A stretch of 64,000 bases of DNA, taken from Escherichia coli (GTDB lineage Bacteria; Pseudomonadota; Gammaproteobacteria; Enterobacterales; Enterobacteriaceae). Position 1 is the stretch's first letter. The number at the start of each line of letters is the position of its first letter. A model generated the notes under the pieces. That model saw only the letters and a program-made list of their open reading frames with translations, did no database searches and was not told where the DNA came from. The stretch lies in assembly GCF_003334405.1 (NCBI RefSeq), contig NZ_QOWM01000010.1. One strand, given 5' to 3'. Both the position numbers and the translations under genes were made by a program. This document shows positions 38,043 through 38,363 of the stretch, in pieces.

Positions 38043-38363
38043 TCAGGCGGCTTTCTTGAGGCAGGCACTCATAAACTTATTACGATCATCACCTTTCAGA
38101 GATTGTTGTGTTGCTTGATTATTGCATTCGCGCATCTTTTGCTGCTGTGGCGTCAAACTTTTTTCGCCAGGCGCAGACTTGCTGTTCTTCAGGCAATCAC
38201 TCATGTAGGTCTTACGAGCATCCCCTTTCAACGCCTGCGCCGTCGCCTGCTGATTACAGGAGGTCATACGCTGTTGTTGTGGGGTTAAAGTTCTCTCGGC
38301 AGCGCCGACGGTGGTTAAAAAAACCAGACCGAAAAGCAAGGTAACCAGTAATGTTATTTTCAT
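38043..38363 (-). CDS. psiF: Phosphate starvation-inducible protein PsiF
   Basis: ATG (complement of 38361-38363) with GAGGGA Shine-Dalgarno gives 106 aa, MKITLLVTLLFGLVFLTTVGAAERTLTPQQQ...; signal peptide plus two tandem Cys-containing repeats. Confidence 0.88.
   Translation of the reverse strand: MKITLLVTLLFGLVFLTTVGAAERTLTPQQQRMTSCNQQATAQALKGDARKTYMSDCLKNSKSAPGEKSLTPQQQKMRECNNQATQQSLKGDDRNKFMSACLKKAA

Follow-up and report, generated by a model that had tools for sequence, protein, structure and literature searches.

The psiF gene of Escherichia coli encodes a small protein made up of two copies of the same cysteine-containing unit. The explanation that best covers the observations taken together, and to which we give roughly an even chance, is that PsiF is an exported, basic protein of two helical hairpins, that it is expressed by read-through from the Pho-regulated phoA promoter, and that it binds an anionic ligand independently of PhoA. 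There is nothing new in the repeat architecture as such, since it defines an existing Pfam family. What narrows the hypotheses is that selection maintains psiF in genomes that have lost phoA, that the repeats are basic throughout the family, and that the number of copies is modular.

Gene Identity and Earlier Reports

The psiF coding sequence is found at 38043..38363 on the minus strand of the window, the 64,000-nucleotide stretch of E. coli DNA that was analysed, and consists of 106 codons and a stop. The ORF translation places the ATG at 38363-38361 and the TGA at 38045-38043; the first-pass annotation had been silent on the strand. The translation, MKITLLVTLLFGLVFLTTVGAAERTLTPQQQRMTSCNQQATAQALKGDARKTYMSDCLKNSKSAPGEKSLTPQQQKMRECNNQATQQSLKGDDRNKFMSACLKKAA, is annotated as PsiF in RefSeq, and it is matched by the NCBIfam PsiF equivalog NF008560 over residues 1-106 on profile positions 1-106, with 234.5 bits (cutoff 165) and an E-value of 1.2e-70. 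A further NCBIfam match, to Lepto_8Cys, reached 21.5 bits against a cutoff of 34 and was discarded as noise. A Shine-Dalgarno region, AGAGGGA (AAGGATGG in most relatives), is located at 38371..38377 (minus strand), 7 nt 5' of the ATG, and is nearly invariant in 34 enterobacterial loci. An alternative in-frame ATG at 38381 would give an ORF of 112 amino acids. This start was rejected, as no Shine-Dalgarno sequence precedes it and the NF008560 profile begins at the 38363 ATG. The 38381 start has been adopted in some database records (P0002).

The gene order in RefSeq is adrA/psiF/phoA. The upstream gene of the operon, phoA, encodes alkaline phosphatase and is found at 38482..39897 on the minus strand, as given by the ORF, by RefSeq and by the literature (PMC10294691). 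The spacer between phoA and psiF is 118 nt, which bears out the earlier placing of psiF directly 3' of phoA. With a 1,001-bp query across adrA/psiF/phoA, a match at 95-99.9% identity was obtained in every one of the 5426 complete E. coli genomes. The protein is thus the E. coli K-12-type PsiF itself in its canonical phoA-psiF-adrA context, and shows no difference from the family as described by PF07769 and NF008560, a family that is defined by sequence only. The internal repeat is already catalogued as the defining feature of this known family.

The function of psiF had been called undefined, and this still stands. The full-text literature, a search scope outside which most subscription-journal papers fall, gives no biochemical function for PsiF; it gives Pho-regulon membership, overexpression phenotypes, and appearances in lists from transcriptome and proteome studies. 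Membership of the Pho regulon is stated in a passage of PMC5981175 that cites Metcalf et al. (1990). An ASKA clone carrying psiF has been selected for faster waking of persisters (PMC6957856; bioRxiv 10.1101/2021.04.10.439273), and psiF was found among the overexpression matches for H2O2 resistance, as was phoA (PMC8228696). All PsiF phenotypes in this literature come from overexpression; it names neither a ligand nor a partner, and describes no loss-of-function phenotype. The phrase 'PsiF repeat' itself turns up in a single indexed paper.

The Internal Duplication

The first-pass annotation described the protein as consisting, after a signal peptide, of two homologous units of about 36 amino acids with two cysteines each. 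Both peptides that it quoted are present exactly. Repeat 1 covers amino acids 24-59 (38187..38294, minus strand), with Cys36 encoded at 38256-38258 and Cys57 at 38193-38195. Repeat 2 covers amino acids 68-103 (38055..38162, minus strand), with Cys80 at 38124-38126 and Cys101 at 38061-38063. The two repeats align without gaps and are identical at 23 of 36 positions. Their BLOSUM62 local score is 125, compared with 22.8 ± 4.8 in 20,000 shuffles, none of which reached 125 (z = 21), and an unbiased scan in which the mature protein was split at every possible point gave a score of 131 against 23.7 ± 4.4 in shuffles (z = 24). The Pfam model PF07769 (PsiF_repeat) matches the protein twice, at amino acids 27-59 (E = 7e-18) and 71-103 (E = 1.6e-15). 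This model describes the "psiF repeat" as a unit of 34 residues, and membership of the family is defined as having one or more copies of it.

The duplication can also be seen in the DNA. An ungapped offset scan was chosen here, since the two copies are only around 65% identical. Shifting the sequence by 132 nt brings 70-71 of 108 bases into agreement; every other offset gives at most 43, and 54 was the highest count among 500 shuffles. Only 15 of the 36 third codon positions agree between the copies, so the duplication is old. Neither Tandem Repeats Finder nor a seed-based repeat finder reported any repeat in psiF, because the duplication is old and the copies have diverged. The self-alignments of protein and DNA are both significant, and together with the two Pfam matches they support the proposal that a small two-cysteine module has been duplicated internally. 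Gln, Asn, and Lys are abundant in PsiF, and the silence of the DNA repeat finders might fit a chance or compositional similarity within such a Q/K-rich peptide, but this origin is excluded by z-scores of 21-24 against composition-preserving shuffles, by a 132-nt offset far above all other offsets and shuffles, and by an independent Pfam model that matches both units.

The PsiF Family

An exhaustive HMMER search returned at least 1,204 PsiF representatives clustered at 50% identity, while the clusters at 90% identity from a profile search number at least 7,923. In the latter, the family was found in Burkholderiales, Zoogloeaceae, and Pseudomonas besides the Enterobacterales. Among the best 150 of the at least 1,204 representatives, two repeats are found in 106 and three in 31, while one protein has four and one has five. 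Eleven of these 150 have a single repeat and are mostly fragments. The consensus of the repeat is xLTPQQ(E/Q)(K/R)MKxCNxxAxxKxLKG(D/E)xRKxFMSxCLK. In about 325 repeats both cysteines are close to 100% conserved at a fixed C-x20-C spacing, and Ala16, Gly23, Arg26, and Leu34 are each around 97% conserved. The number of cysteines per protein is two for each repeat, sometimes with one or more extra, in members with one to five repeats. The repeats have a mean net charge of +3.6, and 90% of them a pI above 8.5.

Repeats within the same protein are on average 61% identical, while repeats at the same position in different proteins are 54% identical and repeats at different positions 53%. There is thus no family-wide signal of orthology among first repeats and among second repeats. 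Since the identity is highest within proteins and this orthology signal is absent, the duplication has been recurrent, or the copies have been homogenised, with equal constraint acting on all of them.

A lipobox-like motif is present in eight of 147 members. Some distant homologues (P0206, P0229, P0233, and P0256, the first of which is encoded in locus L081) have two or three PsiF repeats followed by a long Ala/Pro-rich linker and a conserved C-terminal module. This module is a cysteine-containing stretch of about 60 amino acids with the pattern CG.D.VVWVN...IYH....YGKTK.G.YMCE.DA. When three of the fusions were scanned, the NCBIfam 'sunset' domain was matched below its threshold in P0233 and P0256 (15 bits, cutoff 27) and not in P0206. 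A search for related loci with 12 PsiF sequences returned almost only Enterobacterales, and the distant homologues mostly sit on short metagenomic contigs. The four long contigs from outside the Enterobacterales display no recurring psiF neighbour and no phosphatase partner.

Putative Signal Peptide, Predicted Fold, and Cysteines

By inspection, the N-terminus of PsiF has a basic n-region (MK), a hydrophobic core, and the sequence VGAA with small residues at -3 and -1. The putative signal peptide would comprise amino acids 1-22 (MKITLLVTLLFGLVFLTTVGAA; 38298..38363, minus strand), the cleavage site being approximate. Hydrophobic N-termini are common to the homologues as well, and the AlphaFold2 (AF2) confidence is low across this part of the protein. 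The sequence features point to export to the periplasm via Sec. The mature protein would then have 84 residues, a mass of about 9.4 kDa, and a pI of about 9.7. It contains 15 Lys and Arg, seven Asp and Glu, 17 Gln and Asn, and only two aromatic residues.

An AF2 model built on a 62-sequence alignment has a mean pLDDT of 80.8 and a pTM of 0.42. In this model both repeats are helix-loop-helix hairpins, with helices at residues 28-42/47-62 and 72-86/91-104, and the pLDDT within these blocks is 90-97. The inter-repeat linker, amino acids 60-67 (NSKSAPGE; 38163..38186, minus strand), varies both in length and in sequence among the homologues, and the pLDDT falls to around 60 over residues 63-71. 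The low linker confidence and the low pTM indicate two confident modules whose mutual orientation is undefined. That the protein has a two-hairpin architecture that stems from the duplicated PsiF repeats is, in our judgement, highly probable.

The two cysteines of each repeat (Cys36/Cys57 and Cys80/Cys101) are separated by 20 residues. On a helical wheel both are placed in the middle of a conserved, inward-facing stripe, formed by Q5-M9-C12-A16 in one helix and R26-F29/M30-C33-L34 in the other. The simplest reading is that each repeat carries one internal disulfide, Cys36-Cys57 and Cys80-Cys101, because the cysteines are paired and invariant, because they come as two per repeat in proteins with one to five copies, and because of their position on the helical wheel and the presumed periplasmic location. 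Judged from the sequence, such intra-repeat bonds are probable. Pairing between repeats or between molecules may occur instead, since the cysteines are not equidistant from the loop; the first precedes the end of helix 1 by six residues, and the second follows the start of helix 2 by ten. PsiF lacks a catalytic motif, and beyond its minimal core there is almost no hydrophobic surface. It looks like a structural or a binding protein and not like an enzyme.

Comparison with Known Helical Hairpins and Chaperones

Profile searches against the PDB and structure searches with Foldseek returned no solved structure that is significantly similar to PsiF. The plant α-hairpinins nigellin-1.1 (2nb2), VBP-8, a vicilin-buried peptide (6o3q), and luffin P1 (6o3s) were retrieved by Foldseek with E > 4, which is not significant. 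These plant-derived peptides have a CX3C...CX3C pattern with two disulfides and are not arranged in tandem, while PsiF has one cysteine per helix at C-x20-C spacing. The relation is best described as an analogy of shape, not as membership. The hairpins of the small Tim and CHCH proteins of the mitochondrial intermembrane space have twin CX3C or CX9C motifs and two disulfides, and are found as hexameric chaperones. These twin motifs are absent from PsiF, and no sequence similarity to the small Tim or CHCH proteins was found.

PsiF also resembles Spy, CpxP, and ZraP in being small, basic, helical, periplasmic, and stress-induced, and it might thus belong with them among the periplasmic chaperones or holdases that are induced by stress and work without ATP. 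Spy and CpxP are not known to have paired cysteines, and assemble as cradle-shaped dimers built from long hairpins. The LTPQQ found at the start of each PsiF repeat fits the LTxxQ motif, the modelled fold is an all-helical hairpin in a basic protein, and the overexpression phenotypes, persister waking (PMC6957856) and H2O2 resistance (PMC8228696), are of a generic stress or recovery type. However, neither the profile nor the fold of these chaperones is matched. None of 62 family members gave a Pfam LTXXQ or Spy-type match at E ≤ 0.1, and neither Spy, CpxP nor ZraP was returned by the PDB profile and structure searches. LTPxQ is moreover a generic helix N-cap, and hairpins as tiny as these expose little hydrophobic surface to which clients could bind. 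A chaperone function is therefore considered unlikely.

Expression of psiF

The phoA promoter contains a Pho box, CTGTCATAAAGTTGTCAC, at 39960..39977 on the minus strand. It agrees with CTGTCAT-N4-CTGTCAT at 12 of 14 positions and is unique in the window. In the relatives that carry phoA, the corresponding Pho boxes precede psiF by around 1,585-1,700 nt. On the basis of ChIP-seq and RNA-seq, it has been reported that PhoB binds upstream of the phoA-psiF operon and that the activation of the operon is PhoB-dependent (PMC10294691).

An intrinsic terminator is located between phoA and psiF, at 38439..38476 (minus strand). Its 13-bp stem, with nine G-C pairs, is closed by a 4-nt loop and followed by seven T, and its RNAfold energy is -28.5 kcal/mol. 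When 80 enterobacterial loci were compared, the hairpin was found to be kept in the phoA-carrying ones, with energies of -18 to -29 kcal/mol and compensatory changes in the stem, while in the loci without phoA the stem is decayed or absent. When the intergenic regions were aligned with MAFFT, RNAalifold missed the terminator through misalignment, and the hairpin was recovered by folding each sequence separately. The coding strand of the interval between the terminator and psiF contains no sigma-70-like site, and no credible RNA family was found by Rfam in positions 37000-40500 of the window.

The Pho box, the terminator, the lack of a sigma-70-like site, and the PhoB-dependent activation of phoA-psiF are together most simply explained if psiF is expressed by partial read-through of the terminator. 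It is likely that psiF is transcribed from the phoA promoter in this manner. Presumably, the output of PsiF is then lower than that of PhoA.

Between the terminator and the Shine-Dalgarno region of psiF there is a conserved motif, ACCAGACTTA (CAnnnTTA), at 38419..38428 on the minus strand. When 34 loci are aligned, its CA and TTA columns do not vary. In most Enterobacteriaceae loci (L005-L072) the motif is found at -36 or -37 relative to the psiF ATG, whether phoA is present or not, while in E. coli and E. albertii an insertion has moved it to -63. ACCAGACTTA occurs once in the window and does not match the sigma-70 consensus. It could be part of a psiF-specific promoter or of an RNA element. 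The ACCA of this motif is complementary to two UGGU sequences, one where the T-tract starts and one within the Shine-Dalgarno region.

A crude Pho-box consensus was found neither upstream of 11 distant homologues nor upstream of most enterobacterial psiF genes without phoA, which is a weak negative. Since these genes have no recognised Pho box, the phosphate regulation of psiF may be specific to certain lineages.

psiF in the Absence of phoA

Around 20 of the 80 species-level enterobacterial loci keep psiF at the site between iraP and proC without having phoA there. In four loci from the Enterobacter cloacae complex (L032, L034, L035, and L038) the phoA ORF has been cleanly excised (approximately positions 4700-5000). 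Homology to a phoA-carrying relative covers iraP and the promoter region, extends ~45 nt into phoA, and then resumes just after the phoA stop codon. In Superficieibacter electus (L045) the phoA ORF has likewise been excised, with the promoter region left beside psiF. A Pho box with at least 12 of 14 matches, 196-261 nt upstream of psiF, is found only in L032 and L045; at this threshold none is seen upstream of psiF in L034, L035, and L038. In Enterobacter sp. R1(2018) (L069, approximately positions 4075-4830) the homology to phoA is limited to the first ~420 nt, while psiF is intact. The sequence suggests that this locus carries a shortened remnant of phoA upstream of psiF.

The median pairwise dN/dS of psiF is 0.10 among the genomes that carry phoA and 0.13 among those that do not. 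The constraint is not evenly distributed along the gene, as the values are 0.074 for repeat 1 and 0.081 for repeat 2, compared with 0.52 for the linker and 0.31 for the signal peptide. Thus, psiF is under strong purifying selection whether phoA is present or has been lost. Because the gene is kept under selection in genomes without phoA, it is unlikely that PsiF is merely a helper of PhoA.

PhoA requires disulfides and metals. A dedicated PhoA accessory could thus be needed for the folding, the disulfides, or the acquisition of Zn or Mg in the periplasm, and the position of psiF immediately 3' of phoA, the co-regulation of the two genes, and the recovery of both in the overexpression screen for H2O2 resistance (PMC8228696) would fit such a role. 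This is, however, at odds with the intact psiF genes that evolve under constraint in the ~20 Enterobacteriaceae genomes without phoA at the site, among them the E. cloacae complex where phoA has been cleanly removed and psiF kept. It also agrees poorly with a family of at least 1,204 clusters where the neighbourhoods examined outside the Enterobacterales display no linkage to a phosphatase, and two cysteines arranged as C-x20-C on two helices correspond neither to a thiol-oxidoreductase motif nor to a zinc site. A role dedicated to PhoA is therefore regarded as quite improbable.

Possible Redox and Regulatory Roles

All four cysteines of PsiF are invariant and overexpression of psiF was picked up in the screen for H2O2 resistance (PMC8228696), so it might be asked whether the paired cysteines are redox-active and serve as a periplasmic thiol buffer or as an oxidant sensor. 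Cysteines that are 20 residues apart on two helices do, however, resemble the structural staples of α-hairpinins and small Tims more than CxxC centres, PsiF does not have a thioredoxin-like fold, and the case depends on a single screen match among many genes. We find a redox role very improbable.

PsiF might also be a regulatory ligand at the periplasmic face of a transporter or a sensor, taking part in phosphate signalling or in the resuscitation of persisters. Overproduced PsiF was selected as speeding up the waking of persisters (PMC6957856), and the same laboratory ties PhoB activity to resuscitation (bioRxiv 10.1101/2021.04.10.439273). These are overexpression data from one laboratory and no partner has been reported, and in the neighbourhoods examined no gene for a sensor or a transporter recurs beside the psiF homologues. 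Such a role seems to have equally little probability.

A Possible Mechanism and Its Implications

The explanation that we prefer, binding of an anionic ligand by an exported two-hairpin protein, can be set out as follows. PsiF would be a basic periplasmic protein of ~9.4 kDa and a pI of about 9.7, exported by Sec and composed of two PsiF repeats. Each repeat would form an independent hairpin around a tiny core of Met9, Ala16, Leu21, Phe29, Met30, and Leu34 (repeat numbering), stapled by its own disulfide, and the flexible linker would make the mature protein resemble beads on a string. The pair of repeats goes back to an ancient duplication within the gene; in other lineages the number of copies ranges from one to five. 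In E. coli, psiF has no recognisable promoter of its own, and read-through from the PhoB-activated phoA promoter would cause it to be made during phosphate starvation. There it may act as a non-enzymatic, multivalent binder of an anionic, probably phosphate-bearing, ligand in the periplasm or the envelope, and this activity would be independent of PhoA.

The last step is the weakest. A binding role is favoured because the repeats are basic throughout the family, and because a variable number of copies and variable linkers are typical of modules that work by avidity. The conserved polar residues TPQQ and G-D-x-R can, however, be explained as helix caps, so that conservation of the surface may reflect structure and not binding. 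Anion binding as such is speculative, and we hold it to be a possibility with less than even prospects.

It may even be that the PsiF repeat represents an uncharacterised class of periplasmic module, where arrays of one to five α-hairpins with a single disulfide each, sometimes joined to a sunset-like cysteine-containing domain, bind phosphorus-containing polyanions such as polyphosphate, nucleic acid, or the head groups of LPS or phospholipids. Such arrays would constitute a PhoA-independent arm of phosphate scavenging or of envelope remodelling during starvation; this wider proposal is put forward as a conjecture that is rather doubtful as it stands. PsiF is nevertheless a strongly conserved Pho-regulon protein of the best-studied bacterium, and belongs to a family of thousands of sequence clusters. 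If its ligand were found, one of the last gaps in the annotation of the classical Pho regulon would be closed.
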